In this document: positions 2 to 18,179 of the stretch, piece after piece | Numbering within the stretch: position 1 is the first letter of the stretch | Layout: every line of letters begins with the position of its first letter | DNA from: an uncultured virus (IMG/VR IMGVR_UViG_2802429268_000001) | Taxonomy: Duplodnaviria > Heunggongvirae > Uroviricota > Caudoviricetes | Strand: one strand, 5' to 3' | Virus record (IMG/VR): IMGVR_UViG_2802429268_000001 | Length of the DNA: 20,000 nucleotides | Translations under genes and position numbers: made by a program | Notes under the pieces: generated by a model | Seen by the model: only the letters and a program-made list of their open reading frames with translations | The model's database searches: none | Told to the model about the DNA's origin: nothing

Positions 2-373
2 GTTCCGACCGAGTCGCATACCCTCGTCGGGCGGGCGGAAATGCCGTTCCCAGCCACGAACCTCACGGCGTCAATCGTCGGATCAGACATTGCGCTCGGC
101 TGGGATTGGCGCTCAAGGCTCAACCCGATCGCCATTCTGACCGGGCCGGCCGATACGGTTCATGGAGAATCCAGCCTGTCCTTCGAGATCGACATCATGG
201 ACGGCTCGACGGTGAAGCGCACGCTGACCGCAACGACCAACGAAAAGACCTATCTCGCCGCGGACATCTCTTCGGATTGGGGCTCAATGCCGGCCGATAT
301 CACCTTCCGCGTCTACCAGATCAGCGCGCTCGTCGGGCGCGGCTATGTCGCTGAAGATACCATAACCCTCTAG
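2..373 (+). CDS. C-terminal part of a phage tail-tip/host-specificity protein (5' truncated by window)
   Basis: Frame open from base 2. Beta-rich Fn3/Ig-like end (DIALGWDWRSRL...FEIDIMDG...FRVYQISALVGRG) resembling alphaproteobacterial phage/GTA tail-tip proteins. Confidence 0.7.
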   Translation, partial: VPTESHTLVGRAEMPFPATNLTASIVGSDIALGWDWRSRLNPIAILTGPADTVHGESSLSFEIDIMDGSTVKRTLTATTNEKTYLAADISSDWGSMPADITFRVYQISALVGRGYVAEDTITL

Positions 374-381
374 GGGCACCC

Positions 382-1134
382 ATGACGAACAACACTGGAC
401 GCACCCCGGTTGCCGCCAACCAGGGGTCAGGGGTCTTTGACGACCTTGAGGACAACCTCGGGCGGCTCGACGCGAAACTGACGGAAGCCCTGACGGTTTC
501 CGTTGACAGCACGTCGGAAAGCCTGACGTCGGCACAGATGCAGGCCAATGCCTGCTTCATCCTCAACACCGGTTCCCCGGCTCCTGGCGGCCCGGTAACG
601 CTCACGGTCGCCGCGGTCGAGATCGGCCGCTTCACCGTCGTCAACAACACCAGCCAGACGGTCACGGTGACCATTTCCGGGCAGGTGGTAACAGCGCCGA
701 CCGTCGCCAGCGGATCGACGCAAACCTTCATCTCGGACGGTGTCAATGTCCGGGCGGCGGTCTCGGCTCCGAGCACGGGAACGGCGTTCGAACTCGTCGT
801 CGCTGCTTCCGACGAGACAACGACGCTCACCACCGGCACGGCAAAGGTCACGTTTCGCATGCCGCGGGCGGTCACGCTTACGGCGGTTCGGGCATCGCTC
901 ACGACGGCTTCATCTTCCGGTGTCGTGACCGTCGACATCAACGAGGGCGGCGTTTCGATCCTCTCCACGGCAATCACCATCGACGCGAACGAGAAGACAT
1001 CGACCACGGCGGCGACGCCTCCCGTCATCTCCGACTCCTCACTCGCAGACGACGCAGAAATGACCATCGACATCGACACGGCAGGGACAGGGGCCAAGGG
1101 GCTCAAGGTCGCGCTGATCGGAACAAGGAGCTAA
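382..1134 (+). CDS. Phage tail-fibre/tail-associated structural protein (250 aa)
   Basis: Thr/Ser/Val/Gly-rich beta-type composition, GGGG RBS, directly follows the tail-tip gene. Confidence 0.6.
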   Translation: MTNNTGRTPVAANQGSGVFDDLEDNLGRLDAKLTEALTVSVDSTSESLTSAQMQANACFILNTGSPAPGGPVTLTVAAVEIGRFTVVNNTSQTVTVTISGQVVTAPTVASGSTQTFISDGVNVRAAVSAPSTGTAFELVVAASDETTTLTTGTAKVTFRMPRAVTLTAVRASLTTASSSGVVTVDINEGGVSILSTAITIDANEKTSTTAATPPVISDSSLADDAEMTIDIDTAGTGAKGLKVALIGTRS

Positions 1135-1138
1135 AACA

Positions 1139-1558
1139 TTGGCGGCTTTCAACAAAATCAACGCTTTCGTCGAGAACCTGGCGGAGAAGGTGCACAACCT
1201 TGGGGCGGACCAACTTGTCGTGGCCCTGACGGCGGCGGCAAATGCGCCGGTTGCGACCAACAGCGTCTTGGCCGATCTCACGCAGATCAGCTACACGAAC
1301 CTGTCATCGCGCAACGTCACGACCTCGTCGTCGTCACAGACGTCCGGCACTTACAGCCTTGTGCTCGCCGACCTGACGCTGACGGCGTCCGGCGGCTCTG
1401 TCGGGCCGTTCCGGTACATCGCGCTCTACAACGACACGCCGACGTCGCCGGCAGACCCGCTTATCGGCTGGTACGACTATGGCTCCGACCTGACGCTTGC
1501 CGACGGCGAAAGCCTCACCATCGACTTCAGTGCAAGCGGCGCGATCACGATCGCCTAA
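1139..1558 (+). CDS. Phage virion structural protein, fibre-associated (139 aa, TTG start)
   Basis: AAGGAG RBS 8 nt upstream, GC-rich codon bias, segments such as GPFRYIALYNDT and PLIGWYDYG..LTLADGESLTIDF familiar from phage structural proteins. Confidence 0.6.
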   Translation: MAAFNKINAFVENLAEKVHNLGADQLVVALTAAANAPVATNSVLADLTQISYTNLSSRNVTTSSSSQTSGTYSLVLADLTLTASGGSVGPFRYIALYNDTPTSPADPLIGWYDYGSDLTLADGESLTIDFSASGAITIA

Positions 1559-1569
1559 GCGGAGCATTC

Positions 1570-2700
1570 ATGAGCTTCCTCATCAACCCGTTCGTCTATC
1601 TGTCGGCCGGCGCGACGCTGACGGCAGAGGCCGGCACGTTCACCCTGACCGGTGTTAATGCGGGCCTGTTGCGCGCCTTGCGCATGGAGGCGGCTGCCGG
1701 CGCCTTCACGCTGACGGGTAACGACGCGGATATCTCGACCGGCTATCCCGATCTCGTAGCGGAGACCGGGACATTCACCATCACGGGCAATGCCGCTGCG
1801 CTCACACGGGCGCTGCGCATGGAAGCAAGCGCCGGGGCGTTCTCGCTTACCGGCAACGTGGCAGGTCTCAGTAAGACCCTCACCGTCCTTGCAGAGGGCG
1901 GGTCGTTCACGCTGACTGGCGTCGACGCGGCGTTCAAACGGGCGCTCGCCATGGCGGCGGCACAGGGCTCATTCACGCTAACGGGGAACGCGGCGACGCT
2001 AACTTATGGCGCGACAGACCCGAACTTCTCAAGCGTCGTTCTTCTGTGCGGCTTTGACGGTACGGACGGGGCGACCACATCAACGGACGACAGCAACTCC
2101 GCCCACACGCTCACCTTCGTAGGCAACGCGCAACTCGACACGGCGCAGCAGAAGTTCGGCGGGTCCAGTCTGTTGCTTGATGGGACTGGCGATATAGTCA
2201 CTTGCGCGGCAAGTACCGACTGGGACTTCGGAAGTTCCCCCTTCACCATCGAAATGTTTGCTCGTTTCAACACGATCACATCCACAAGTAGGTCGGTTCT
2301 CGGCAGTTCTGGATCTAACGCAGCCAGCTTTGTGATGGGCATCAATGCTGGGCTGAGTAATTTCCAATTCGCATTCAGCTCGAATGGGGGATCGTCCTTC
2401 AACGAGATCATCACATCGTCCGGAGTCACTGCGGCGACCGGCCAGTGGTATCACCTCTGCGTCGATCGCGACGGCTCGAACAAGATCCGACTCTATATCG
2501 ACGGCGTCATGCGCGGCAGCCTGACCACAGCCAACGCCATCAACTACGAAAGCACGGCTCTAGCGATCGGTGCGACTGACGGCACCGGGTCTTCAGACAT
2601 GGATGGCTGGTTAGACGAGGTCCGCATTACCAAGGGCGTGGCGCGGTATGCATCCGATTCCGGCTTCACGGTTCCGACGTCCGCCTATCCACGGTCATAA
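1570..2700 (+). CDS. Fibre protein with six 22-23 aa repeats and a C-terminal LamG/ConA-like domain (putative receptor-binding protein)
   Basis: GGAG RBS, repeats of GxFTLTGxxA, LamG-like motifs FTIEMF, WYHLCVDR, IRLYIDG, GWLDEVRITKGVARY. Confidence 0.75.
   Translation: MSFLINPFVYLSAGATLTAEAGTFTLTGVNAGLLRALRMEAAAGAFTLTGNDADISTGYPDLVAETGTFTITGNAAALTRALRMEASAGAFSLTGNVAGLSKTLTVLAEGGSFTLTGVDAAFKRALAMAAAQGSFTLTGNAATLTYGATDPNFSSVVLLCGFDGTDGATTSTDDSNSAHTLTFVGNAQLDTAQQKFGGSSLLLDGTGDIVTCAASTDWDFGSSPFTIEMFARFNTITSTSRSVLGSSGSNAASFVMGINAGLSNFQFAFSSNGGSSFNEIITSSGVTAATGQWYHLCVDRDGSNKIRLYIDGVMRGSLTTANAINYESTALAIGATDGTGSSDMDGWLDEVRITKGVARYASDSGFTVPTSAYPRS
1609..2010 (+). repeat. Six tandem ~66-69 nt coding repeats in the fibre gene
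   Basis: AEAGTFTLTGVNA / AAAGAFTLTGNDA / AETGTFTITGNAA / ASAGAFSLTGNVA / AEGGSFTLTGVDA / AAQGSFTLTGNAA. Confidence 0.85.
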
Positions 2701-2716
2701 GAAATGCCGCGTTGAC

Positions 2717-2872
2717 CTAGTTGTGGGGCAGCACCGAAAAATACGAGAGGTCGAGCGACGAGCCCGAAACGACCAGGGCCGCCAAGCCGGAAACGATTAT
2801 GGCGGTCAGCACTAACCACTCGACACCGGTAATGTCGGCTTTGCGCTTAGGCGGACGATATTCGGTGGGCAT
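2717..2872 (-). CDS. 51-aa single-TM peptide, Flp-pilin-like (absent from the ORF track)
   Basis: Hand translation MPTEYRPPKRKADITGVEWLVLTAIIVSGLAALVVSGSSLDLSYFSVLPHN. ATG lies 6 nt after the stop of the methyltransferase gene, with purine-rich GAAGGGTAAAGAG upstream. Confidence 0.55.
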   Translation of the reverse strand: MPTEYRPPKRKADITGVEWLVLTAIIVSGLAALVVSGSSLDLSYFSVLPHN

Positions 2873-2878
2873 CGCTCT

Positions 2879-3556
2879 TTACCCTTCTTCAGCCCTTGCA
2901 ACGGGCGTCAACGGCCTTGGGATCAACATGGGAACGCTGCTGGCGTAGCTGTCGTATTCAGGGAAAGTGCGTCTGAGGACGCGCTCCTCGTTGAACATCC
3001 GCCGTAACTGGAAGGCGAAGTGGGCGGCACCGACCAGCAACGCGGCCAGCGACCAGTTGGCGATCAGGAACCCGACGGCGCTGATTGCCTCCGCAGCATA
3101 CAGCGGGTGGCGGACGATTGCATAGGGACCGGTCACGACGAGTTTGCGAGCTGATGCCATTACCGAGAACGAGCGCCCTAGCCAGAACAGACAGTAGATC
3201 GACAGTGCCGTGCCGATGAGGGCCAGGACGGTCGACGCGACGAGCATCCCAGGTCCGGCGGTGCCCCGCGGCAGCACTATGAGGACCATCAGCCCAAACG
3301 TCCCCGCGAGCGCGCTCAGTCGGGGCTCTATCCCCTCCGCGCTCCGCCGCGGCGGCAGTCGAACCACTGTCAGGCCGACGACCAAGCACAAGAACAGCAA
3401 ACCCAGCAATCGCGAAGAGAGGACGAGCGGCCAGAATTCTATGCTCTCCCGAAACCGAATGACCGCTACGATCGAGGCGACCTGCTGCAGCGCCAGGTAA
3501 AAGAAGACGAGTGTAAGGAAAGTCTTGCCCAGAAGATCTTCGATCCTGCTGATCAT
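2879..3556 (-). CDS. Integral membrane methyltransferase, ICMT/PEMT family (225 aa)
   Basis: LVVTGPYAIVRHPLY and NEERVL family motifs, several TM segments, ATGA overlap with the upstream gene. Confidence 0.88.
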   Translation of the reverse strand: MISRIEDLLGKTFLTLVFFYLALQQVASIVAVIRFRESIEFWPLVLSSRLLGLLFLCLVVGLTVVRLPPRRSAEGIEPRLSALAGTFGLMVLIVLPRGTAGPGMLVASTVLALIGTALSIYCLFWLGRSFSVMASARKLVVTGPYAIVRHPLYAAEAISAVGFLIANWSLAALLVGAAHFAFQLRRMFNEERVLRRTFPEYDSYASSVPMLIPRPLTPVARAEEG

Positions 3557-4365
3557 GGGTGCGTGTCTCCTGGTTGTTGCTGCGATAACGCGCCCGCAGG
3601 AACTCGAAGCTGCTTGAGTGGATAGGCGAGTTGCTGGTGATAGAGCGGGGGCACCGGATCATCGGTGCCGTAGACCCTCGGCATACGCTCAGGCATGTAC
3701 AAAGTGCCAGCGAGGGCATCGATGAAGGGCAGCTGGCCGGCGAAGTTTTTGTCGTAGGCCTGTCGCTCGTTGGCATGGTGCCAGTGATGGAATTGAGGAG
3801 AGGCGAGCACCCATTTGAGAGGGCCGAACCTGATCCGAGTGTTTGAATGGATCAAAAGCGACTGCGCCTGATAAATCAAAGCATAGATCGCGATTGCAGA
3901 TCCGGAGAAGCCAAGAGCGTAAACCGGAATCAGGGAGGCAGCCGAGGTCACGATCTGGTCGACCGGATGAACACGATGCGCGGCCAGCCAATCCATCTCC
4001 TCGATGCTGTGGTGGACAGAGTGAAACTTCCACAGGAACGGCACGGAATGGAAGGCGCGGTGCGCTAGGTAAAATCCTATATCGGCAACAAGAGTGACCT
4101 CGATCGCCTGCAACCATATCGGCTGGGCTTGCACCACAGCGAACACGCCTCCCGGAATGACAAACCGGATGGCGATCATGATCGAGCCGACCAGGGCGAT
4201 GAAACCGAGCTTGATCAGAATGCTGTTGAAGAAGAGGTAGATCACGTCGTTCAGCCAGTGCTTTCGCAGCACTTTCTGATCAGCGTGAAGCGGGAGAAGC
4301 CGCTCGAGCGGAATGAAGATCATGGCGATTATCAGGATCGCCTTCAGGTCGATGAGCTCTAACAT
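3553..4365 (-). CDS. Sterol desaturase / fatty-acid hydroxylase superfamily di-iron enzyme (270 aa)
   Basis: His boxes HRAFH, HSVHH, HSN, HHWHH and TM helices. ATG at 4365 overlaps the stop of the PAP2 gene. Confidence 0.9.
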   Translation of the reverse strand: MLELIDLKAILIIAMIFIPLERLLPLHADQKVLRKHWLNDVIYLFFNSILIKLGFIALVGSIMIAIRFVIPGGVFAVVQAQPIWLQAIEVTLVADIGFYLAHRAFHSVPFLWKFHSVHHSIEEMDWLAAHRVHPVDQIVTSAASLIPVYALGFSGSAIAIYALIYQAQSLLIHSNTRIRFGPLKWVLASPQFHHWHHANERQAYDKNFAGQLPFIDALAGTLYMPERMPRVYGTDDPVPPLYHQQLAYPLKQLRVPAGALSQQQPGDTHP

Positions 4366-5357
4366 GTAACACCCGATGATTGCTTGTTTTGGCTCGGCGC
4401 ATCGAAAAGCCGCCAAAAAAAGAAAACGGCAGCAGCAGAGACATACCCGTCCACCGCATAGTGCCAGCCGAAGTAGACCGAGCCGAGCAACGTCAGGGCG
4501 GCGAAAGCCCATCCCGCGAGCCCGAGCCACCGGTTAATTTGCGTCAGAAAGAGTGCGTTCAGGCTTGCAACTGCCACGTGGATGCTCGGCATTGCTGAGA
4601 TGCCGGCGAAGATGTCCTCCGCGCCGGAAACATAGGCGGCATATAGCCGCTCGGCGACAAAGAAATGGTATCTGGCGTCCGGGTTTTGTTTGAGTGTCAG
4701 GACGAGCTCTGCGAACCGGCCTTCACCGAAAAACTGATCATAGAATATGGGCCCGACGGAGGCAGTTACGGCGGCCAGCAGGGTGCCCAGGACCGCGTAA
4801 GTCGCGGCGAATGATCGCAGGTATCTTGATCGCAGCCGATCGCTTGGGTGGAAGGCGGCCAAGGCAATGCAGCCGATGAACTCGAGCAGCCAAAGTGGGA
4901 AATAGACGATGAGCATGGGTTGCATCGCGATCGGGGGAATTATGGAGTGCACCAAACGCCACGGATCGCCGAAGTGAATCATGCGGTCAGTCTCTGCGAG
5001 AGCGTGATCTGCGTAGAACGGAACGACGAGCGGGATATGGAACTTCACTGTCCAGAACGCCGCCATGCCGACGCATATAACCGCAGCGATGACAAGCGCT
5101 CCGCTTCCTCGGCGCCTAATGATGCCGGCCACGTGGCTGAGAGGTGCCGTCGGGCGGCTAACAATGGCGGAAGCCAACAGACCGAGGGCGGACAGGACAA
5201 GCGCTGCGGGCAGCACTTGCAGCGCGAATGCGCTCAGGTTCCGCATGTACAGCGCGGGAGCGAAACTGAAGGCCGCGATCACATAGGCTCCGCAAGAGAT
5301 GCTCAACCACCGCGACGGTCGCCTTGATGCGGAAGTGCTGATTACAGCTTCGGTCAT
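4359..5357 (-). CDS. PAP2-superfamily membrane phosphotransferase/phosphatase, Aur1/Ipt1 (PAP2_3)-like (332 aa)
   Basis: SVGPIFY, SAMPSIHVA and GWHYAVDG motifs (H-H-D triad), multi-TM. ATG 5357 has a GGGGG RBS; alternative GTG at 5393. Confidence 0.85.
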   Translation of the reverse strand: MTEAVISTSASRRPSRWLSISCGAYVIAAFSFAPALYMRNLSAFALQVLPAALVLSALGLLASAIVSRPTAPLSHVAGIIRRRGSGALVIAAVICVGMAAFWTVKFHIPLVVPFYADHALAETDRMIHFGDPWRLVHSIIPPIAMQPMLIVYFPLWLLEFIGCIALAAFHPSDRLRSRYLRSFAATYAVLGTLLAAVTASVGPIFYDQFFGEGRFAELVLTLKQNPDARYHFFVAERLYAAYVSGAEDIFAGISAMPSIHVAVASLNALFLTQINRWLGLAGWAFAALTLLGSVYFGWHYAVDGYVSAAAVFFFWRLFDAPSQNKQSSGVTC

Positions 5358-5449
5358 AATAGGTAGCCCCCATATCCCACGCGATTGAACCACTGGTTGC
5401 GCCTGACGGCAATATCATCCTTTCTGGTTAGTTAATGGGGTCAACACCG

Positions 5450-6670
5450 ATGGCAACTCCTCCGGTTCCGGACGACGTGATCCTGCGCTCGCTTGAGGCG
5501 TTGGCGGCCTGCGGCGGGAACCAGTGCAGGGCCGCCGAGATGATCGGCATCAGCCGGGCCGGGCTACAGGGTCACTTGAAGATGGCCGCACGCCGGGGGT
5601 TGGTTGCGCCGGCCAATGCCGCGCAGGTGATGCCCGGATTTGAGGTCACGCGAGTCCAGACAGGCCCGCGCGGAACCACGATCGAACAGAAGCCGGGGCC
5701 GGGAGAAGTCTTCACCGTCCCGGAAGGCCACAAGATCAAGGGCGTCTCCGCCTTCATCGATCCGGACGGCCGAGTCCGCGGGCAATGGGTGAAGACGCGG
5801 GAAGGGGAGCCGGATCCGGAGCGCACCGCCGAAATCATCAAGGCCGCATTCGAAAACTTCGAACCGAAGGCTCCGATCGTGCTTCCGCCGCGGGACAGCG
5901 ATACCGAAAGGCTGACGGCCTACATCTTCTGCGACTGGCATGTCGGGCTGTTCGCCTGGGGTCGGGAGACGGGCGGGGCCGATTGGGATCTGACCATCGC
6001 TCGAGAGACGCTTTCCGCCGCGGTGCGTGAGATTGTCGAGACGTCGCCGCCAAGTGCTCAGGCGGTCATTCTCGGCCTTGGCGACCTTCTCCATGCTGAT
6101 AACGGCCGGAACATGACGGAGCGATCCGGCAACGTTCTGGACGTCGACACCCGCTATTCCAAGTGCCTCGAAACCGTCTGCGACCTGATGGCCGAATCCT
6201 CGGAACTGATCGCGGCGAAACACAAGCACGTCGAAGCTGTCTTCAAGCCAGGCAATCACGACGAGAACAGCACCGTGGGCATCCGCCAGGCGCTCCGCAT
6301 GTACTGGCGGGATAATGAGCGGGTTTCCGTCGACACCAGCCCGGACGCTTTCTACTGGCGCCGCTTCGGCGTCAACCTGATCGGCGGGACGCATGGAGAC
6401 AAGGCGAAGCCCCCAGACCTTCCGATGATCATGGCGAACCGGCGGAAAGAAGACTGGAGCGCCACGGCGACCCGACACATCCACACCGGTCATATTCATC
6501 ACGATACGGAGCGCGAGATCGGCGGCGTGCATGTCTATTCGCACCGGGCTCCGGTCGCACAGGACGCCTACCACGCCTGGCACGGCTATCTCTCCGGCCG
6601 ATCGATGAAGAGCTACACCTATCACGTCGAGAAGGGCGCCAGAGGCCATTCCGAAGTCGAAATCTCATGA
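5450..6670 (+). CDS. Calcineurin-like metallophosphoesterase with N-terminal Fis-type HTH
   Basis: DWHVG, GDLLH, GNHD, THGD, GHIHH motifs and GGNQCRAAEMIGISRAGLQGHLK HTH. Start 5450 or 5435. Confidence 0.85.
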   Translation: MATPPVPDDVILRSLEALAACGGNQCRAAEMIGISRAGLQGHLKMAARRGLVAPANAAQVMPGFEVTRVQTGPRGTTIEQKPGPGEVFTVPEGHKIKGVSAFIDPDGRVRGQWVKTREGEPDPERTAEIIKAAFENFEPKAPIVLPPRDSDTERLTAYIFCDWHVGLFAWGRETGGADWDLTIARETLSAAVREIVETSPPSAQAVILGLGDLLHADNGRNMTERSGNVLDVDTRYSKCLETVCDLMAESSELIAAKHKHVEAVFKPGNHDENSTVGIRQALRMYWRDNERVSVDTSPDAFYWRRFGVNLIGGTHGDKAKPPDLPMIMANRRKEDWSATATRHIHTGHIHHDTEREIGGVHVYSHRAPVAQDAYHAWHGYLSGRSMKSYTYHVEKGARGHSEVEIS

Positions 6671-6887: not shown

Positions 6888-7121
6888 ATGAAACTGATCG
6901 CCGATTGGCGGGCGGTGCTGCGCTATGCGTGGTCGTTCCGGCTGAACATCCTTGCCGCCCTGCTTTCCGGGCTCGAGGTCTGGTTCACGTTTATCAACCC
7001 CGAAAGCCTGCCGATCCCGCACGGCACGTTCGCCGCCTTGGCGTGCGTGACGACCATCCTCGCGAACATCGCCCGCTTCGTGGCGCAAACGTCCATCTCA
7101 GGAGGAAAGCCCGATGAGTAG
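6888..7121 (+). CDS. Putative holin (77 aa, 2 TM)
   Basis: Two hydrophobic segments, AGGA RBS, overlaps the lysozyme start. Confidence 0.7.
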   Translation: MKLIADWRAVLRYAWSFRLNILAALLSGLEVWFTFINPESLPIPHGTFAALACVTTILANIARFVAQTSISGGKPDE

Positions 7122-7581
7122 GCTTAAGAAGGCCGGCAAGATGACGGCGATCGGTGCGGCCGCAATCGCCCTCGTCGGCGCATGGGAAGGGCTGCGCACA
7201 GTGGCCTATCGCGATGTTGTCGGGATTCCCACCGTCTGCTTCGGCGAGACCCGCGGCGTAAAGATGGGCGATCGGTATTCGGTCGACGAATGCAAGGTGA
7301 TGCTCGGTGACGCGCTCGTTGAGTTTGAAGCCGGTATGCGCGCTTGCCTGAAGAACCCCGACGGCCTGCCTGACAAGGTCTATGTGTCGTTCCTGTCCGC
7401 CTCCTACAACATCGGGACGCGGGCGTTCTGCGGCTCGTCAATGGCTCGCAAGGCGAATGCCGGCGATCTCCGCGGTGCGTGCGATTCCCTGGCGCTCTGG
7501 AATAAGGCCGGCGGCCGCGTCGTCAAGGGCCTCACCAATCGCCGCGCCGAAGAGCGCCGGCTTTGCCTTGAGGGGCTGTGA
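7114..7581 (+). CDS. GH24 lysozyme, probable SAR endolysin
   Basis: E-x8-D-x5-T triad (WEGLRTVAYRDVVGIPTVCFG), YNIG, GLTNRRAEE, and a basic then Ala/Gly-rich hydrophobic N-terminus. Confidence 0.93.
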   Translation: MSRLKKAGKMTAIGAAAIALVGAWEGLRTVAYRDVVGIPTVCFGETRGVKMGDRYSVDECKVMLGDALVEFEAGMRACLKNPDGLPDKVYVSFLSASYNIGTRAFCGSSMARKANAGDLRGACDSLALWNKAGGRVVKGLTNRRAEERRLCLEGL

Positions 7582-7937
7582 TGCTCGGTCGCTTCTTGGA
7601 CTGGGTTTATATCGCCGTCGGCGCGCTCGCAGCCTTTGCACTCTTCAGCCTGTACGACGGCATGGTCGACGATCCTCTCGTGAGACGTGAAGCGCTCCGG
7701 GGGTACGTCCTCAAATCGGAACGCGATGCAATCGCCTCTCAGCTTGCCGAGGAACGACGTCGAGCGCTCGCTGCGGCACAGACAGCCGAAGAGTTCAAAC
7801 GGCGATACACGGCCCTCTCTGAGCGGAACAAGGCCAACAGCGAAAAAGCGGAGCAGGACATTGAAAGCGACAACCGCACTGACGACGGCGCTCCTCGGGT
7901 TACTTCTGGGGATCTCGACTGGCTGTCAAAGCACTAA
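7578..7937 (+). CDS. i-spanin (Rz-like)
   Basis: N-terminal TM followed by a charged coiled coil, directly after the endolysin. Confidence 0.7.
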   Translation: MMLGRFLDWVYIAVGALAAFALFSLYDGMVDDPLVRREALRGYVLKSERDAIASQLAEERRRALAAAQTAEEFKRRYTALSERNKANSEKAEQDIESDNRTDDGAPRVTSGDLDWLSKH

Positions 7938-8172
7938 CCAGCGCCTCCAGCAAGCCGCCATCCAGCAAGGACAGGCGAGGGCGACGGTGATCCTGCCCGA
8001 CCTTCCGCAAGCCTGCCGCGATGCAACCGGCGTCGTGAACCCGAAAGAGGGCGAGAAATGGCGCGGCGTCCAGCTTCGATGGCAGGTGGTCCGTGAGAAC
8101 GAGAACGAGATCAAGACTGCATGCGCTGAATTCTACGACCAACTCCGGCAACGCCTGGCGAAAGGGGAATGA
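7861..8172 (+). CDS. o-spanin (Rz1-like lipoprotein), overlapping the i-spanin
   Basis: TTG start after AGGA, signal KATTALTTALLGLLLGISTG-C (lipobox), LPDLPQAC segment. Confidence 0.72.
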   Translation: MKATTALTTALLGLLLGISTGCQSTNQRLQQAAIQQGQARATVILPDLPQACRDATGVVNPKEGEKWRGVQLRWQVVRENENEIKTACAEFYDQLRQRLAKGE

Positions 8173-8173
8173 C

Positions 8174-8491
8174 ATGCTGAAGGGCATCATCTTGGGCGCG
8201 CTGTCTCTGATCGCGCTGGCGTTCATCCTCTTTTGCTTCTGGGTCCAGCCCGCCGTGGCGCAAGTAGACCCCAGCACATGTGCACCGCGCCGCGAGTTGA
8301 TCGATTCGCTAAAGGCCACCTACGGAGAAACCGAATCCTGGGTCGGCAAGGACGCCAAGGACAAGGCCGCTGTCTTCCTGCTGATGACGGGCAAGAACGG
8401 ATCTTGGACCTTGCTCAAGGTCATGCCCGACGTCGCCTGCGTGATTGCAGCCGGATCCGAATCCACCAACCTGTTTGGAACGCCGGTATGA
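8174..8491 (+). CDS. Exported/anchored phage protein (105 aa)
   Basis: Hydrophobic N-terminus ending in AVA-Q, two Cys in the mature part, AGGGG RBS. Confidence 0.7.
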   Translation: MLKGIILGALSLIALAFILFCFWVQPAVAQVDPSTCAPRRELIDSLKATYGETESWVGKDAKDKAAVFLLMTGKNGSWTLLKVMPDVACVIAAGSESTNLFGTPV

Positions 8492-8816
8492 CGACCGAAA
8501 GCGAAACCCAGCGCAGCCTCGGCCGCCTCGAGGGCAAGCTCGACATGATCCTGGCCGATCAGGAACAAGCCCGGTTTGCCCGTCAACATCAAATGGAAAA
8601 GTCGGAAGCGATCGAGCGCCGGCTGGATGCGACCGATCAAAAGCTCTCGTCGGTCACCGACCGCTTCAATGAAGCTGCGCCGATCATCTCGGATATCAAG
8701 CGGTGGAAGGAACGGTTCATTGGGGCGCAGATGCTCATTGCCGGCGTCTTCGTCGCCATTGGCGGGGGATTGCCCTGCTGTGGAAATGGCTGGCCGTGAA
8801 GGTCGGGATGCAGTGA
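8488..8816 (+). pseudogene. Coiled-coil + C-terminal TM phage protein (DUF1515-like) with an apparent 1-nt deletion in the G run 8764-8768
   Basis: ATGA coupling, MTTESETQRSLGRLEGKLDMIL... Adding one G gives ...AIGGGIALLWKWLAVKVGMQ*, completing the TM helix. Confidence 0.65.
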
Positions 8817-8845
8817 CGGCGGCGAGTGAAACAACCCGCCGCCGT
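8816..8845. terminator. GC-rich hairpin after the last phage gene
   Basis: ACGGCGGCG-N12-CGCCGCCGT inverted repeat, no U tract. Confidence 0.35.
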
Positions 8846-8904
8846 TAGAGACACGCCTATTGCCTCAGTGACACGGCTATATTGATTCTATTCACAGTTC
8901 TCGA

Positions 8905-8951
8905 AGCCTTCCAAGCTGAATACGCGGGTTCGATTCCCGCTACCCGCTCCA
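8905..8951 (+). repeat. attR core: 47-bp 3' fragment of tRNA-Gly(TCC)
   Basis: AGC-CTTCCAA-GCT anticodon loop, T arm GCGGG-TTCGATT-CCCGC, TACCCGC-T-CCA end. No 5' acceptor strand (GCGGGTA) or D arm upstream. Confidence 0.9.
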
Positions 8952-9127
8952 AACCTCCATTGCACCGTTCCGCAGTCTTTATATGAGACTTTAGGGAATT
9001 GCCGCATATGCCTGATTGTGTTGACTTTCATGGCTTTGGGCGATCTATGGGCCGGCGTTTGGCGAATCTTCGTGACAAACTTACGAAGTGGGGTCAGGCT
9101 GTACCGTCAAGCGGACGCAATTAAGTC

Positions 9128-9156: not shown

Positions 9157-9216
9157 GCTCGACAAACCGGCCCAGCCGGCTGATCCATCGTATTTTTGAC
9201 CACAGGAAGCGTACCC

Positions 9217-10392
<1,176 letters not shown>

Positions 10393-12469: not shown

Positions 12470-12545
<76 letters not shown>

Positions 12546-12598
12546 TTTCTTTCAAGCACTTGGCATAGACAAGCCGCGGAAACGGGCTCTCCAGCGCA

Positions 12599-12624
12599 AT
12601 CTGGACAACGGATTTGGACAACGG
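12599..12624 (+). repeat. Tandem 13-bp direct repeat, putative integrase arm-type sites
   Basis: ATCTGGACAACGG-ATTTGGACAACGG, 53 nt after the tRNA end. Confidence 0.55.
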
Positions 12625-12641
12625 GGGCGGCACCGGTCTCC

Positions 12642-12968
12642 TCAAGGCCGTTCCTCCGGGCTCGTTCCCGGACCCGTCGAAGCGGAACCCGCGTCGGTGC
12701 GGGCGGCGGTTGCGTTTCGCTCGGACTTCCTGAACCTGCGTGCCGCCAGGTGCTCCCACCGTGCCCGCGCCTGCTCCTTCCCGGACGGCAGCGCCAGAAT
12801 CCAGGCCCAGACGTCGCCACCCAGCCACCTCAGATCACCGCCGGGCAGCCGAAGGGCGCCGGGGAAGCGACCGTCGCCTTCGTAGCGCCAGAGGGTTGTG
12901 CGCGAAAGCCCGGTGATGAGCTCCACCTCCCTGCGCCTGAGCAGTCGCATCATCTCGTCCCATCCCAT
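12642..12968 (-). CDS. alpA: AlpA-family regulator/excisionase (108 aa)
   Basis: RLLRRREVELITGLSRTTLWRYEGDGRFP...RW...V.AWI signature, GGAGG RBS 7 nt before ATG 12968. Confidence 0.88.
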   Translation of the reverse strand: MGWDEMMRLLRRREVELITGLSRTTLWRYEGDGRFPGALRLPGGDLRWLGGDVWAWILALPSGKEQARARWEHLAARRFRKSERNATAARTDAGSASTGPGTSPEERP

Positions 12969-13235
12969 GGGTTGCCTCCAAAGCGCAAGCTGTAGCGTTC
13001 GCGTTCCGGCATCGGGAACGCGGCACTCAGTCGAATGATTTGACGGTTGAGGTGATCCTAGCACTAAAATTCCACGACGTAAAGCCTATCTGGATTTGTG
13101 TTCTACCGAAGCGCCGAATGAAGTCGAATGGGCGACCATAATTGTTGACATAAGGAAAAATCGTTCCGAAACGAATCCAGTGGCCCTGCGGCTCTGCGAA
13201 TGCGGGCGGACCGACGCCGATCACGGCAATAAAAG

Positions 13236-13264
13236 TTGACATTGGCCGCGCATGATCGTAATGC
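13236..13264 (+). promoter_or_regulatory. Candidate sigma70 promoter for the rightward island operon
   Basis: TTGACA-N17-TAATGC in an AT-rich divergent spacer. A second TTGACA lies at 13145. Confidence 0.45.
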
Positions 13265-13396
13265 TTACAGAGTGAGCATAATGTTTTGATTTAGGGACTC
13301 GTTGTTTGCGACGGGTGGACGTCGCTGTTTGGGCGCGAATCCTTCAGGGATTCGAGTACGCCATGGACGTCGGCGGCGACGGGAGGCGGTCTCGGC

Positions 13397-13804
13397 GTGA
13401 CGGCGCCGGATCCGGCGGACGGGGCGCCGAGACGTCCCAATCCTGAGGAGGTATCCGGAGAACGCGGAGCGACACGGCAATCGAAAGGACAGGATGTCGT
13501 CGAGATGATGCGCGCCCGTCGGCGCGAGCAGGATTCCTCTGACCAACCCGAGGTCATTCCGACCCCGCGGTTGCGACGCCGGGGCTCCCGCTTCGGCCGC
13601 CTCCGATACATCGGCAGGAACTCCGCCCTTGCGGGGAATGAACGTGAACTCGCGACGGTGCGAGACGTGAGCAGGAAAGCGCTTGAACTTTCATTGGATG
13701 GACAGCGAGACGGTAGAACGCCTTCTCGAAAGCATTCACAGCGCGAACGCGGGGGGGCTGGACCAAGCCGTCATCGCGGAAGCCCCCTTGCTGGAGTGCT
13801 ATAG
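13397..13804 (+). CDS. Possible hypothetical protein (doubtful)
   Basis: GGGAGG RBS before GTG, but Arg-rich, disordered and overlapping the next gene by 122 nt. Confidence 0.25.
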   Translation: MTAPDPADGAPRRPNPEEVSGERGATRQSKGQDVVEMMRARRREQDSSDQPEVIPTPRLRRRGSRFGRLRYIGRNSALAGNERELATVRDVSRKALELSLDGQRDGRTPSRKHSQRERGGAGPSRHRGSPLAGVL

Positions 13805-13982
13805 GACCGCTGTGGGGCACGCATTCGCCCTGACTGGCATCGTGCAGGGGCATCCCCGCATCGATGACGGACGCAGGGTCGTCACCAGCCAGCTTTTCTA
13901 CTTGGATCCGAACCTGGGCATCGCCCGGACGATGAACCGGTGGTATCGCCTCGGCGCCCGCGACAGAAGCTGGGGGCAATGA
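13683..13982 (+). CDS. Small protein, DUF6634-like (99 aa)
   Basis: APLLECY...LTGIVQGHPRIDDGRRVVTSQLFYLD...ARTMNRWYRLG, AGGA RBS, 1 nt from the ATPase start. Confidence 0.75.
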   Translation: MNFHWMDSETVERLLESIHSANAGGLDQAVIAEAPLLECYRTAVGHAFALTGIVQGHPRIDDGRRVVTSQLFYLDPNLGIARTMNRWYRLGARDRSWGQ

Positions 13983-13983
13983 G

Positions 13984-15840
13984 ATGAGGTTCGAGATTGA
14001 TCGCGCGCTCGCCCGAAAGCAATCCGGGGATCCCGGCATATTCCTCGCGTCCTGCACTCTCGTGCGCGCACTGCGGGCCGCCGGGCTGTTCCGGTCTGGT
14101 GCCACCGGATTTGTCATCTTCGTGGTCCCAAGGGGCTACCGCACGCAGGAATACGAAGCGGCAGCATTGAGCCTCCTGGGACCCGAGCGTGGTGATTGGC
14201 TGGACCAGCAGGTCAAAGTTCAGTTTGCCAATCCACCCAGGAAGAAGGGCGTCCCCCAAAAGCGCGTGTCCGTATTCGACCTCACGGGGCTGGAGGTGCT
14301 GATCGCCAGGGACATCGGCGAGCTCCCGAAAGACGTGCGCTTTGCAGCCACGGCGGTTATGCTGGTGGAGCGGCCAACGCCGGGACACATCAATGCCGTA
14401 CGCCGGCTCTCGGGGCGGACGCCATTCTCCCGGGAGGTGGCAACTCTACTGGCAGAAAAGCCGCAGAACGCCCTTCTCGCCGCGGTTCTTCAGCCGAACA
14501 TGGCTGAAGGCAGGATTGGCGAAGTCAACGATTTGAATCGCTGCGAAACCGGCGCGCCAAGCCTCTTCGAATTGCCGGGGTATGAGGAACTGAAGCCGTG
14601 GGCGAGAAGGCTCTCGTCTGACCTCGCCCGCTGGCGGAGCGGCGAGCTGCCCTGGAGACTTGTCAATCGGGGCGCCCTCATATCCGGCCCTCCCGGGACC
14701 GGCAAGTCCCTCTTCGCGTCGGCGCTGGCCAACGCGCTTGGTGTGAAGCTGATCTCGACCACGATAGGGAGCTGGCAGTCAGAAGGCCATCTCGATGACA
14801 CGCTCGCGGCGATGAGGAAGAGCTTCAGCGATGCCGATGACGGGGAGGGCTCGGTCCTGTTCATTGATGAATTCGATAGTATCGGAAGGAGATCCGCTCG
14901 TCCCACTCACCGCAATGACCACTATTGGCAGGTCGTCCTCAACGATTTTCTCTACCTGTTGAGCAACCTGGGCGATGGCGTGGTGGTGATCGGGGCCACA
15001 AATCTTCCCGAGTGGATCGATCCAGCTATCTTGCGCGCCGGGCGCCTCGAAAATCAGTTCGAGCTAGCTCTCCCAGACCACAAGTCGCGGGCCGGGATCT
15101 TAAAGCATCATGCTGGTGATGCCATATCGCTCGATTCCCTGTCCGATATCGCCGAGAACTTGGACGGCGCCTCGGGGGCTGACCTCGAGAAGCTGGTGCG
15201 CGATGCACGCGAGGCTGCGCGAAGCGAGGATCGAGAGCTGGAACTACGGGATCTCATCAACCGCCTCCCGGAGAAAATGCGATACACGGCGGAACAGCAG
15301 CTCAGGCTTGCGGTCCACGAAGCCGGACATGCCCTGGTCTCGCTCGCGCTGGGATATGCAACGAGCGTGACCATCGAGATCAAGGACAGCTTTGATCCGA
15401 CTGCAACAGAGTTTCTTGGGGGGCTGGCATCATACACCCTGGTTCCGGATCACTTTCCAACGGAAACGAGTCTGCGCAATCGCATCGCAGTGAGCTACGC
15501 CGGGATGGCGGCTGAGGCAGCGGTGTACGGCGATCGGTCAGTCGGCTCGGGTGGCACGGTTGGCAGCGATGTCGAACGGGCGACCTCAATTGCCCGGCGG
15601 ATGGTTGGAAGCTTTGGGCTCGGCAAGACGCCAATTTTTCTCGGCACTCCTAAAGACCTCGGAAACGGGCCGCTGCCCGAACGGCTGGAAGCGGAAGTGG
15701 CGCAAATGCTGTCGGAGGAGTGGGAGCGGGTGCTCGCGATGCTCACGGAGGGGCAGAAACGCATCCTTGACCTGGCGGCCGAAGTCGTCACCAATCGTTC
15801 GGTGAGGATCGAGCGCGATGGAATAGCGGAGGCCGCCTAG
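13984..15840 (+). CDS. Soluble FtsH-like AAA+ ATPase fused to an M41-type zinc peptidase (618 aa)
   Basis: Walker A GPPGTGKS, Walker B LFIDEFD, SRH GATNLPEWIDPAILRAGRLE, HEAGH, AGMAAE, GSD. No TM pair. Confidence 0.9.
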   Translation: MRFEIDRALARKQSGDPGIFLASCTLVRALRAAGLFRSGATGFVIFVVPRGYRTQEYEAAALSLLGPERGDWLDQQVKVQFANPPRKKGVPQKRVSVFDLTGLEVLIARDIGELPKDVRFAATAVMLVERPTPGHINAVRRLSGRTPFSREVATLLAEKPQNALLAAVLQPNMAEGRIGEVNDLNRCETGAPSLFELPGYEELKPWARRLSSDLARWRSGELPWRLVNRGALISGPPGTGKSLFASALANALGVKLISTTIGSWQSEGHLDDTLAAMRKSFSDADDGEGSVLFIDEFDSIGRRSARPTHRNDHYWQVVLNDFLYLLSNLGDGVVVIGATNLPEWIDPAILRAGRLENQFELALPDHKSRAGILKHHAGDAISLDSLSDIAENLDGASGADLEKLVRDAREAARSEDRELELRDLINRLPEKMRYTAEQQLRLAVHEAGHALVSLALGYATSVTIEIKDSFDPTATEFLGGLASYTLVPDHFPTETSLRNRIAVSYAGMAAEAAVYGDRSVGSGGTVGSDVERATSIARRMVGSFGLGKTPIFLGTPKDLGNGPLPERLEAEVAQMLSEEWERVLAMLTEGQKRILDLAAEVVTNRSVRIERDGIAEAA

Positions 15841-16764
15841 CGGCATCCGGGCGATGCCATCCGTTCGCTAGCGGCACCGCCATTGCAGCGGCAGGGCATT
15901 CAGCCGGCCGCTGGTGGAGGGCGTATGCACACTCGTTGCTGAGATAGTGAACGGTTGGCGGCTGCTGCGAAATCGGAGTCAGGCATGTCACACGGCGGAA
16001 AGGACGATGCAGGCAAGGCCGGCGACGCCGGCCGGATCGGCGAAGAGGCAGACCACGACGAAACGCTCGGCGAAGCTTTGTCAAGAGAGGGATTCGAGCC
16101 GGCCAAAGTCGGTCGCAAAGTCATGTCGCAAGGGAGACGCAGAGAGCCTTTGAAGAAGGGGCCTCCCAAAGGCTCCAGCAGGTAGACGTTTCCGGAATGT
16201 GACCGATATGCGCGCTCCTTCTCCCCCCCCGACTTCCACTACCGAAGCTTGATCCATCGGCAGTCTTCCTTCCTCGAGGCACGTGCGGCTCTATTAACCG
16301 CATACCGTCATCCCGTCCGCCAGGGTGGGCGCATGGGCTGCGCCATCGGCGAACCCGCCGCCGAGCGCAGGCTCCGGCACTGATTGTTCAAGACCCGGAA
16401 ATACTGGCCGGCGCGATTTCGAAACGTGGGATCGGATCATTGTGCTGCTGGATGCTCAGGTGCGAGGGATAGCAGAAGCGCTCCCATCGCCGCCCGTGGA
16501 TATGAAATGCGTTTGGGGGTTGCCTCGATGCGATCGTCTATGCCCTGGGGCGGCGCTTGCGTCCTCGATGGCTTGGCGAAGGCGGATGGGATCAGGTTTC
16601 GGCAATATGGGTGGGCAACGGGATTGCGTAGGGCGTCTCGTAAAATAATAAGTAATCAATCTTCGATGCGATGAAGAGCTTGGCCTATCATAGGGTCCTG
16701 TGACCTGCGCTCTCCGCCGTAGAAGGCAACTGGACGGCCTATCTTTCGTATTCTAGGAGCTGTT

Positions 16765-16998
16765 ATGGACGCGCAAGCACTCATCGAATTCAGGAAGAAC
16801 ATCGACTTCATGGAGATCATGTTTCGGATGTCATGCGCTTCGACGCGCTTGGCGTTTGGGGCGGGCCTTGAGCAGCTTTCAGTTCTCAACCACGGCAATA
16901 ACGATGCCGACGTTGAGGAAGGCCGCCGACGCTTGCGCGCCGCCATTACCTCACAACTCGCCGAATTCGAGAAGCTATTGGAGCTCGTGGGCGAGTAG
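16765..16998 (+). CDS. Hypothetical helical protein (77 aa)
   Basis: AGGAG RBS, amphipathic helical pattern, protein-like composition. Confidence 0.55.
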   Translation: MDAQALIEFRKNIDFMEIMFRMSCASTRLAFGAGLEQLSVLNHGNNDADVEEGRRRLRAAITSQLAEFEKLLELVGE

Positions 16999-17095
16999 TC
17001 CTGGTCTTCGGTTTCACGTCTCTTGTTCGCCGATCCCGCCCGCTCTACGCTCGCCCGCACGCGCCGGATTCGGCAGACGAGGGCAGGGGCAATTT

Positions 17096-18010
17096 GTGAA
17101 GGGCATTTTCGACACCAAACGCGATTCTGGGTACGACGACGAGATCGCGTTTCGGTACCATTTTCCTAAACGTTACCGCCCGATCGCCGAGACACTGGTT
17201 GGCGACCGGGTCATCTATCGCGAGCCCCGTCGTAATGGCGGAAGACAGGCGTATGTCGCGACGGCTAAGGTAGTGCAGGTGAACGACGATCCCCTCCGAC
17301 TGGGGTTCGCATACGCTGCTATGGCCGAATACCAGGAGTTCGATGAACCCGTGCCATTCTTCCAGGGCGGCCGCTATTGGGAAACGGCACTGCTAGTGGT
17401 CGCAGATCCCAGCCGTGTCGGGGCCTTTCTTCAGGGAAAGTCCATTCGCACAATTCCGGAAAGCGACTTCGCAGCGATCGTCCGCGCCGGGCTGTCCGAG
17501 ACACTGGCGGCCGACAACGCCATTAGGCTCGAACTTGACCCTCGACACGTCGACGGCCCCACGCAGGAACTTCTCGACCTCCCGCTCGTGGACCAGGAGC
17601 GCCGCATCGAGCAGATCCTGACGAATCGCAAGATCCGAGAAGCAAGCTTTCGGCGAAAGGTCTGCGATGCCTACGATAGCCGCTGTGCAATCACTGGACT
17701 GCGGATCGTCAACGGTGGCGGCAAGTCCGAAGCCCAGGCCGCTCACATATGGTCTGTTGCCGACGGCGGTCCGGACGTCGTCCAGAATGGCATCGCACTT
17801 TCCGCCACGGTCCATTGGCTCTTCGACAGGCATCTGATCTCGCTGACGGACGATTACCGAATCCTCGTTTCGCATAACAAGGTGCCGTCGGAGCTGCGGA
17901 TGCTGTTCGCGAAGCAGATGGATCGGATACATCTGCCCGCGGATGAGCGGCTGTGGCCCCACCCGGCGTATTTGGCGCTGCATAGGGAGAAGTTCAGCGG
18001 GATCGTGTAG
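17096..18010 (+). CDS. HNH endonuclease with PUA/EVE-like N-terminal domain (304 aa, GTG start)
   Basis: FRRKVCDAYDSRCAITG, AAHIWSVADGGPDVVQNGIALSATVHWLFD (HNH_2-type), and N-terminal VGDRVIYRE...YVATAKV. Confidence 0.85.
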   Translation: MKGIFDTKRDSGYDDEIAFRYHFPKRYRPIAETLVGDRVIYREPRRNGGRQAYVATAKVVQVNDDPLRLGFAYAAMAEYQEFDEPVPFFQGGRYWETALLVVADPSRVGAFLQGKSIRTIPESDFAAIVRAGLSETLAADNAIRLELDPRHVDGPTQELLDLPLVDQERRIEQILTNRKIREASFRRKVCDAYDSRCAITGLRIVNGGGKSEAQAAHIWSVADGGPDVVQNGIALSATVHWLFDRHLISLTDDYRILVSHNKVPSELRMLFAKQMDRIHLPADERLWPHPAYLALHREKFSGIV

Positions 18011-18179
18011 GGCGCAAGTCGGCCCCCACCAGAGGACGGTTCTGAAAGCGAGCCTCCGCCACGACTCCCGAAGCGATTCTTTGATGTAGAAACACGTATA
18101 AATTTAGTCCGGTCACACTAAATGCCATCGCAGAATGCAGTTGGTCTTGATAGTGTACCGCGGGAATTTTGGGGGAATC

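Follow-up and report, generated by a model that had tools for sequence, protein, structure and literature searches.

The cassette and its gene junctions

The subject of this study is a cassette of four genes at positions 2717-5357 of a 20,000-nucleotide (nt) stretch of DNA, hereafter referred to as the window, which derives from an uncultured virus of the Caudoviricetes (IMG/VR record IMGVR_UViG_2802429268_000001). The window corresponds to G000:C1:1038524-1058523 in a genome of 6.09 Mb in three contigs from a bacterium of the Rhizobium family, for which a search identified members of Rhizobium, Ensifer and Sinorhizobium as named close relatives. Direct reading of the sequence bore out the preliminary description, according to which four open reading frames (ORFs) on the minus strand run against the phage late genes on the plus strand. 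The first gene (4359-5357, minus strand; 332 amino acids (aa), ATG start) encodes an Aur1-like membrane phosphotransferase or phosphatase of the PAP2_3 family, and the second (3553-4365, minus strand; 270 aa) a membrane di-iron hydroxylase of the FA_hydroxylase/sterol desaturase family. The third gene (2879-3556, minus strand; 225 aa) specifies an integral-membrane S-adenosylmethionine (SAM)-dependent methyltransferase with the ICMT/PEMT fold and the fourth (2717-2872, minus strand; 51 aa) a small single-pass membrane protein.

The tight coupling of the four genes could be read at each junction. The ATG of the hydroxylase gene (4365-4363) lies over the TAG of the PAP2_3 gene (4361-4359) in a 7-nt overlap, the hydroxylase and methyltransferase genes share an ATGA overlap (3556-3553) and a gap of 6 nt (2878-2873) separates the methyltransferase gene from the small ORF. 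The longest possible ORFs of the first two genes would begin at GTG 5393 and GTG 4530. These starts were rejected because the full-length homologues, of 332 aa and about 271 aa, start at the ATGs. As had been claimed before, each of the four genes encodes a hydrophobic membrane protein. The helices predicted from hydropathy and AlphaFold2 (AF2) models number 7-8, at least 3, 5 and 1 in gene order. The GC content of the cassette is 0.588 versus 0.619-0.624 in its flanks.

Enzymes encoded by the cassette

The earlier family assignments held up in searches with hidden Markov models, in which all three enzymes scored above the Pfam cut-offs, and the folds of the PAP2_3 protein and the methyltransferase agree with them. 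The PAP2_3 protein matches PF14378 with 63.9 bits (cut-off 27) over profile positions 2-188 of 190. Its catalytic triad H260/H299/D303 lies in a PSxH...HYAVD arrangement, and its relatives carry the motifs GISAMPSxH and GWHYAVDG. The alignment of 32 relatives shows no variation at K105, D117, H260 and D303, and at least 90% of the sequences retain H299. The general PAP2 model PF01569 gave 20.4 bits, which is under its cut-off of 27.2, and in our reading of the same alignment no RP follows the invariant K105 as in the phosphatase motif KX6RP. Judged by these two features, the protein would not be classified with PAP2 lipid phosphate phosphatases such as LpxE and PgpB.

The structural comparisons point to Aur1. 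A profile search of the PDB with the PAP2_3 relatives returned yeast Aur1 as the sole match, with a marginal E-value of 0.05 and the catalytic motifs aligned. For the AF2 model of the protein (predicted local distance difference test (pLDDT) score 90.6), Aur1 was also the closest structure according to Foldseek (E 1.2e-3). Superposition with VIA-align yielded a Z-score of 17.9 for yeast Aur1, in an alignment of 246-255 residues that extends from residue 5 to residue 332 of the model and hence over its full length. The other solved matches were LpxE (Z 14.9), G6PC1 (about 13.7), PgpB (13.4) and SMSr (11.0), and the PAP2 phosphatases aligned with Z-scores of 10-15, mostly over residues 114-324 only. 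The model thereby suggests an Aur1-like architecture along the whole protein and not just a PAP2 core. Hydropathy, charge and the helices of the model predict eight transmembrane helices, a cytoplasmic N-terminus and a periplasmic position for H260, H299 and D303. The protein thus resembles Aur1 (PDB 9ivc, 9vj4) and the SMS/PAP2_3 head-group transferases in family membership, in the aligned PSxH...HYxVD residues, in its whole-length fold and in an active site predicted on the non-cytoplasmic face. However, the identity to Aur1 is 14%, and no Kei1-like partner could be identified for the prophage protein.

The hydroxylase matches PF04116 with 104.3 bits (cut-off 31), and its histidine boxes, HX3H (H102/H106), HX2HH (H115/H118/H119) and a second HX2HH (H193/H196/H197), are invariant in 26 relatives. 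The search for relatives returned 1892 matches, of which the best 120 show 62-90% identity. The best NCBIfam model is OlsE (NF052566), matched over positions 43-284 of 293 with 109 bits. With a cut-off of 475 for this model, the protein does not qualify as an OlsE equivalog. OlsE itself is described as a di-iron enzyme that hydroxylates ornithine at C4 (PMC12971839). With OlsE from Rhizobium tropici and Agrobacterium, the prophage enzyme shares the superfamily, the bacterial family and a nearly full-length profile match. It differs in belonging to a separate, well-conserved clade, whose members are 62-90% identical to one another and which travels with an ICMT-fold methylase.

OlsE is the only characterised family that the hydroxylase matches over nearly its full length, and the cassette could accordingly be viewed as a device for editing ornithine lipids. 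In that case the hydroxylase would act on the ornithine head group, the methylase on the carboxylate or the amine, and the PAP2_3 protein might add a phospho-alcohol to the new hydroxyl group. The host genome contains an OlsB-like gene (PF13444, 113 bits), and the search of this genome revealed no true OlsE. Ornithine lipid is thus probably present in unmodified form and is a candidate substrate. Moreover, ICMT enzymes accept amino acids that are N-acylated, carry a lipid and have a free carboxylate, and we regard such molecules as chemically similar to ornithine lipids. However, the OlsE score lies far under the cut-off, and NCBIfam holds so few models of this superfamily that a top match carries little weight. 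Furthermore, we know of no ornithine lipid that is phospho-substituted or methyl-esterified. The known ornithine-lipid methylase OlsG is described only as a relative of phospholipid N-methyltransferases (PMC12971839). We consider the editing of ornithine lipids by the cassette to be quite unlikely.

The methyltransferase belongs to the Pfam families PEMT (PF04191; 35.5 bits, cut-off 25) and ICMT (PF04140; 34.6 bits, cut-off 24), and the search for its relatives, which form a large family, gave 813 matches. The closest solved structure to its AF2 model (pLDDT 83.2) is Ma-ICMT (4a2n), with a Z-score of 14.3 and a root-mean-square deviation of 3.3 over 174 of 192 residues. The motifs RHPLY and EE...Y...Y are invariant in 27 relatives. 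The alignments of all three enzyme families are thus in line with the earlier statement that the catalytic motifs are intact. The enzyme shares the fold, the SAM-binding RHPxY motif, the C-terminal EE and the Pfam membership with ICMT, PEMT, LmtA and MddA. However, it scores below the cut-off of every NCBIfam equivalog model that it matches, namely ICMT (41 of 160 bits), LmtA (35.2 of 325) and MddA (19 of 270). In the search of the genome with the LmtA model TIGR04571, it reached 31.4 bits and likewise stayed under 325.

Since LmtA, which methylates a phosphate of lipid A, is among these three matches, an activity on lipid A or lipopolysaccharide (LPS) that masks the phage receptor has to be considered as well. 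Here, the PAP2_3 protein would act in the periplasm and remove or transfer a phosphate of lipid A or of the core, the methylase would cap a phosphate in the manner of LmtA and the hydroxylase would act on an acyl chain. Serotype-converting genes of other temperate phages are located behind the receptor-binding fibre gene, which is also the position of the cassette. Solved PAP2 phosphatases such as LpxE and PgpB share the catalytic core with the PAP2_3 model. Moreover, a gene of the Acyl_transf_3 family, to which O-antigen acetylases belong, directly precedes a PAP2_3 gene in a viral contig (L125, 4824-6792) and lies directly beside a methylase gene and next to an integrase gene in a genome (L107, 7761-9446). 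On the other hand, the score of the methylase for LmtA is no better than that for the generic ICMT model, and the low PF01569 score and the missing RP after K105 speak against a phosphatase. The known hydroxylases of lipid A acyl chains also belong to another family. As in the case of ornithine lipids, we regard this explanation as improbable.

The small ORF encodes a single hydrophobic helix (residues 17-35) with four lysine or arginine residues before it and none after it, and the N-terminus is therefore probably inside and the C-terminus outside. Neither Pfam nor PHROGs nor NCBIfam yielded a match, and the ESM Atlas linked the protein to unnamed clusters only (score 0.85). However, a homologue of 52 aa occupies the matching position in Rhizobium sullae (40% identity over 52 aa, E 8e-10), which indicates that the 51-aa ORF is a real gene.

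Cargo in the same position of related prophages

The cassette lies between a tail fibre-like gene (1570-2700, plus strand) and a gene for a phage exonuclease-like protein (5435-6670, plus strand), which is followed by the lysis genes. The location proposed earlier, between the fibre gene and the lysis region, is correct in this broader sense, but the direct neighbour on the right is the exonuclease gene. The fibre-like gene is convergent with the cassette and carries a C-terminal Laminin_G_3 domain, a ConA-like lectin domain (PF13385, 79 bits), along with matches to baseplate and virion families of PHROGs. This domain was used for the comparison of phages, as the exonuclease relatives, which are 82% identical (L085, L086), reside in prophages that share no other flank.

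The C-terminal domain of the fibre is shared by 52 viral loci. One of these is the element described here, and the comparison thus covers the other 51. In these loci, relatives of PAP2_3, the methylase and the small ORF were found in none and relatives of the hydroxylase in three. The scan of the genes downstream of the fibre covered 64 proteins from 14 of the 51 loci, to which 14 proteins from L117, L122, L124 and L125 were added. In L136, L137 and L143, the endolysin gene follows 1.8-2.6 kb past the fibre after one to four genes on the same strand, with no antisense cargo of the cassette type. By contrast, the three loci with a hydroxylase (L134, L135 and L142), and also L117, which was found via the hydroxylase, contain a lone antisense hydroxylase gene (51-54% identical) directly behind the fibre or tail gene. 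The gene behind which it lies is a homologue of the fibre in L134, L135 and L142, and in L142 and L117 the lone hydroxylase is located beside a GH108 endolysin gene. Furthermore, L122 and L123 have a lone antisense PAP2_3 gene (39-41% identical) between the tail genes and the holin and endolysin genes. The cassette is therefore a moron: it is situated inside the prophage, and the slot is empty or otherwise filled in related prophages, as had been expected from its antisense position.

In a quick tree with support values from the Shimodaira-Hasegawa-like approximate likelihood ratio test (SH-aLRT) only, the hydroxylase of the window groups with the R. sullae copy (97). The four hydroxylase genes that stand alone in prophages form a separate clade (100), which also includes a methylase-paired chromosomal copy. 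These separate clades suggest that hydroxylase genes were captured by phages at least twice.

The earlier statement that no phage system with this combination is known agrees with the INPHARED records and the viral loci that were searched, since no phage record among them carries it. INPHARED contained no phage record with a relative of PAP2_3 or of the methylase, and in IMG/VR the methylase was found in this element only. The hydroxylase matched just two very long INPHARED records, which are both named 'Acinetobacter phage MD-2021a' (CAKLQH020000004.1 and CAKLQF020000002.1; 232 and 305 kb) and contain an annotated fatty acid hydroxylase with 42% identity. Their size suggests that they may not be phage genomes, and they were not counted as phage evidence.

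Chromosomal source and the conserved gene pair

A locus on the chromid of R. sullae WSM1592 (pWSM1592_1, 1,933,263-1,935,788) corresponds to 96% of the cassette in one piece, with 81.4% nucleotide identity. The same two overlaps are present, the last gap is 5 instead of 6 nt and the homologue of the small ORF follows. The encoded proteins are 76% (PAP2_3), 90% (hydroxylase) and 83% (methylase) identical to those of the prophage. Ensifer sp. B1-9 possesses the three enzyme genes in the order of the cassette (65%, 81% and 82% identity, respectively), and a Pseudolabrys metagenome-assembled genome (MAG) has them in the order hydroxylase-methylase-PAP2_3 with 50-66% identity. No phage genes were found around these three loci, whose neighbours are genes for GGDEF-EAL proteins, alanine racemase, hemA, ilvD and tad pilus genes. 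The R. sullae and Ensifer loci thus resemble the cassette in having the same four genes (three in Ensifer) in the same order with near-identical junctions. They differ in lying among host genes (GGDEF-EAL, tad pilus) and are annotated by family name only. Judged from these comparisons, the cassette appears to have been copied as a whole from a chromosomal or chromid locus of the Rhizobiaceae into the prophage, and we count the chromosomal origin as shown.

The ratio of nonsynonymous to synonymous substitution rates between the prophage and the R. sullae copies is 0.19 for PAP2_3, 0.14 for the hydroxylase, 0.14 for the methylase and 0.30 for the small ORF, with saturated synonymous sites. These values indicate that purifying selection has acted on the three enzymes ever since they diverged from their R. 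sullae counterparts. The discovery of the trio as a common and already characterised chromosomal locus would have reduced its novelty. The trio does occur outside phages, in Ensifer, R. sullae and Pseudolabrys, but it is rare and uncharacterised. An aminotransferase gene beside the Pseudolabrys trio was considered as a link to sphingolipids. This idea was dropped since the gene product is a 5-aminolevulinate synthase (679 bits) and not a serine palmitoyltransferase.

Two of the three enzymes are found together much more widely. Among 79 metagenome loci with relatives of the methylase, 41 have a hydroxylase gene as the direct neighbour (28 upstream, 12 downstream, 1 divergent), 14 have no adjacent hydroxylase gene although both flanks are visible and 24 are undecidable. 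The pair is thus adjacent in 41 of the 55 decidable loci, and two of the 14 negative loci have the hydroxylase gene one gene away. The methylase was found in 4 of 201 genomes of the family and 6 of 401 genomes of the order, with G000 included in both counts, which is too sparse for phylogenetic profiling. The family tally includes one unpublished genome (G078), which gave no match. In the other three family genomes that encode the methylase, the hydroxylase gene is always adjacent to it, in three different arrangements, and one of them (G188) also encodes a PAP2_3 protein with 74% identity on another contig. The methylase is absent from the two other sampled species of the genus to which the window belongs. 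Taken as sequence evidence, this distribution identifies the hydroxylase and the methylase as the conserved core, to which PAP2_3 appears to be an occasional addition. The co-conservation foreseen for the trio therefore holds for the pair, but it does not extend to PAP2_3.

The methylase gene or the pair was repeatedly observed at the end of tad/Flp clusters with genes for Peptidase_A24 (prepilin peptidase), TPR, T2SSF and TadA-type ATPase proteins (L045, L083, L106, L107 and L108), and the same holds for nine of the 79 metagenome loci (L185, L198, L202, L216, L222, L223, L224, L232 and L235). The sequences of these loci fall into three or more lineages, of which one belongs to a different family within the order. 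It could therefore be speculated that the hydroxylase, the methylase and the small protein modify a pilin or a lipid involved in the assembly of Tad/Flp pili, and that the prophage alters a pilus-dependent trait. The small ORF has a basic leader followed by EW and a hydrophobic helix and looks loosely Flp-like (E 2.6, not significant). However, it matches no Flp family, and its R. sullae homologue lacks the glycine of the cleavage motif. Moreover, most loci with the pair have no tad gene in the visible flanks, related genomes share synteny so that few independent events may underlie the count, and the prophage itself has no tad genes. A role in pilus biology is thus very unlikely.

A probable role in lysogenic conversion

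We regard it as probable that the cassette is a lysogenic-conversion operon that alters the envelope lipids of the host, with a membrane lipid or a lipid-anchored molecule as the substrate. Di-iron hydroxylases and ICMT/PEMT enzymes act at the cytoplasmic face on membrane-embedded substrates, whereas PAP2-type enzymes, including Aur1, act at the opposite, non-cytoplasmic face. At the cytoplasmic face of the inner membrane, the hydroxylase and the methylase most likely share one substrate, a membrane lipid or a lipid-anchored molecule, to which they would add a hydroxyl and a methyl group, respectively. On the periplasmic side, the PAP2_3 protein may act on this envelope molecule or on a related one, either by attaching a phospho-head group to a hydroxyl of the lipid or by cleaving off or transferring a phosphate. 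A conserved accessory role may fall to the small membrane protein. The net outcome would be a changed envelope of the lysogen with an altered phage receptor or altered stress properties. Within this scheme, we infer the sidedness of the active sites, the sharing of one substrate, the expression in the lysogen and the phenotype. Ornithine lipid and lipid A are candidate substrates, neither of which is favoured by the data.

The presence of transcripts was evaluated with four RNA-seq libraries from one study, each of which contained 99% or more of the words sampled from positions 2500-5700. Contigs assembled from these libraries cover the whole cassette. The X3 contig spans 2614-5408 and thus all four ORFs, the X4 contig spans 1807-5681 and those of X1 and X2 extend from 2614 to about 8000. 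Such contigs give neither strand, ends nor level, and the end of the X3 contig at 5408 does not represent a transcript start. The contig depth in the four runs was 18-85 over the cassette versus 5-18 over the late genes, but these are single figures per contig, two of the contigs also span lysis genes, and the values were not used as a measure of expression. The contigs are thus compatible, if weakly so, with expression of the cassette in the lysogen, and its antisense orientation to the late operon would fit independent transcription.

Several observations weigh against a role of the whole cassette in lysogenic conversion. Because the flanking late genes are covered by the RNA contigs too, the libraries may contain carried-over DNA or reads from induced cells. 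No promoter emerged from a scan for the sigma-70 consensus, and terminator-like sites did not exceed the number expected by chance. The envelope target is a prediction from the protein families. Furthermore, the three enzymes are seldom encoded together. When neighbours were sought within 8 kb in 79 genome loci with PAP2_3 genes, taken from the best 80 of 583 confirmed matches, the hydroxylase and the methylase were both present in two loci, those of Ensifer sp. B1-9 and the Pseudolabrys MAG, and absent in 77. In addition, a PAP2_3 gene was found near the methylase gene in one of the 79 metagenome loci. As PAP2_3 is seldom found beside the pair, the three enzymes do not have to belong to one pathway. 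The prophages in which one enzyme stands alone imply that each enzyme may act by itself on a substrate of the host, and together with the PAP2_3 loci lacking the pair they argue against an obligate three-step pathway. The single compact three-enzyme pathway that had been envisaged is weakened by the distribution of PAP2_3, by the prophages with the hydroxylase or PAP2_3 alone and by co-conservation that is confined to the pair.

The same expression data might suggest that the cassette is passenger DNA, acquired by illegitimate recombination and with no role in the lysogen, or that it functions during lytic growth only. No promoter consensus was found, and the coverage of the late genes would be in accordance with DNA in the libraries or with induced cells. 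However, the three enzymes appear to be under purifying selection with intact motifs and junctions, and the slot has been filled independently by the same two families in other prophages, in which the lone hydroxylases form a clade of their own in the quick tree. The orientation against the late operon also fits transcription that is independent of the late genes. A passenger or an exclusively lytic function is therefore hardly likely, and lysogenic conversion remains the reading that we prefer.

A more elaborate version of lysogenic conversion would be a multi-step head-group pathway, in which a hydroxyl group is made on a host aminolipid or on lipid A, the head group is methylated and a phospho-alcohol is transferred onto it from a bulk phospholipid by the periplasm-facing Aur1-type enzyme. 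We consider such a pathway unlikely. If it exists, the product would be a class of membrane lipids that is undescribed in bacteria, the PAP2_3 protein would constitute the first case in which a phage employs an Aur1/SMS-type transferase for lysogenic conversion, and the widespread pair would point to a lipid modification that has gone unrecognised in soil Alphaproteobacteria.

Boundaries of the prophage and neighbouring genes

The prophage, about 55 kb in size, occupies an integration site at a tRNA-Gly fragment that lies upstream of tuf. IMG/VR lists the element as a viral contig of 52.9 kb. A direct repeat bounds the prophage, of which the right-hand copy (about 745 nt) is located at 8206-8952 on the plus strand of the window. 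The left copy, at G000:C1:991903-992642, is also found as L114 7904-8643. The two copies (740 and 747 nt) are 99% identical and 54.8 kb apart, and each ends in a 47-nt 3' fragment of tRNA-Gly(UCC), which constitutes the att core and lies at 8905-8951 in the right copy. This short stretch was matched in most of the 196 family genomes, out of 201, that gave any match. ARAGORN detected no whole tRNA at either copy of the repeat. A likely history is that an earlier, related prophage had left an att remnant upstream of tuf and that the present one integrated there. To the left of the left repeat there are host genes (for a SpoU methylase and others), and to its right there are a 411-aa gene without a family match and genes for DUF5131 and RecT. 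The RNA contigs join the 5' half of a tRNA to position 8905. They also join 8951 to 9111, thereby skipping 159 nt, and show many alternative letters across tuf (9160-10341). This join and the alternative letters would fit a second copy of tRNA-Gly/tuf elsewhere in the genome.

The left end of the window (41-1558, plus strand) encodes tail proteins according to Pfam and PHROGs. A divergent intergenic region of 77 nt (5358-5434) separates the cassette from the exonuclease gene and is presumed, from reading of the sequence, to be a promoter region. The exonuclease-like protein has an N-terminal Fis-type HTH_8 domain and matches phrog_704 (E 4e-90), and the site between cargo and lysis genes is unusual for such a gene. 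The lysis block comprises a DUF7940 gene in holin position (6888-7121, plus strand; 59.7 bits), an endolysin gene (7114-7581, plus strand; Phage_lysozyme 122.8 bits, phrog_7) and an ORF without family match (7578-7937, plus strand). The host tuf gene is located downstream. The stretch 7900-8834, which lies partly inside the direct repeat, allows competing gene readings: minus-strand ORFs at 7900-8319, 8320-8640 and 8637-8834 with good third-position GC, and a plus-strand ORF at 8233-8799 that matches phrog_5211 (E 2e-11). With Rfam at gathering thresholds, a tRNA-Trp (12470-12545) was the only hit in the window, and no RNA element was found in or before the cassette. The part of the window that begins after this tRNA (12470-20000) resembles a defence island. 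It encodes an FtsH-like AAA+/M41 protein (13984-15840) with a weak match to the anti-phage ATPase IteA, an HNH_2 protein (16856-18010) that resembles restriction endonucleases for phosphorothioate DNA and a C-5 cytosine DNA methylase (18135-20000) that continues past the end of the window.

Relation to known conversion systems and implications

Temperate phages re-decorate the surface sugars of their hosts, and phage cargo aimed at the membrane lipids themselves is, to our knowledge, barely documented. The serotype-converting and envelope-modifying morons of the gtrABC and oac/Acyl_transf_3 types are similar to the cassette, as they consist of integral-membrane envelope enzymes carried as accessory cargo of prophages near the tail genes or att and are missing from closely related phages. 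The transcription of these morons does not depend on the late genes, and the antisense orientation would fit the same for the cassette. The difference is that the cassette encodes an Aur1-type PAP2_3 protein, a di-iron hydroxylase and an ICMT-fold methylase, and that its target is likely to be a lipid rather than an O-antigen sugar. Thus, envelope-modifying cargo of temperate phages as such is known, and what is new are the enzymes and the probable lipid target. LPS conversion by phage epsilon15 is mentioned in PMC5537653, and the searched passages of a paper on the sinorhizobial virome do not mention the cassette. Our literature search found no description of the cassette or of the pair of hydroxylase and methylase genes, which other papers or supplements may hold.

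The slot behind the fibre gene can be viewed as a defined site for cargo in a group of Rhizobiales prophages, which accommodates a di-iron hydroxylase or an Aur1-type enzyme alone, or the two together with a methylase. The pair of hydroxylase and methylase genes is a frequent and uncharacterised two-gene unit in soil bacteria. With four genes on 2.6 kb, the cassette could serve as a transferable construct for learning which products are made by the pair and by bacterial PAP2_3 proteins. Moreover, it would permit a direct test of how the editing of lipids relates to phage sensitivity, stress tolerance and symbiosis in rhizobia.

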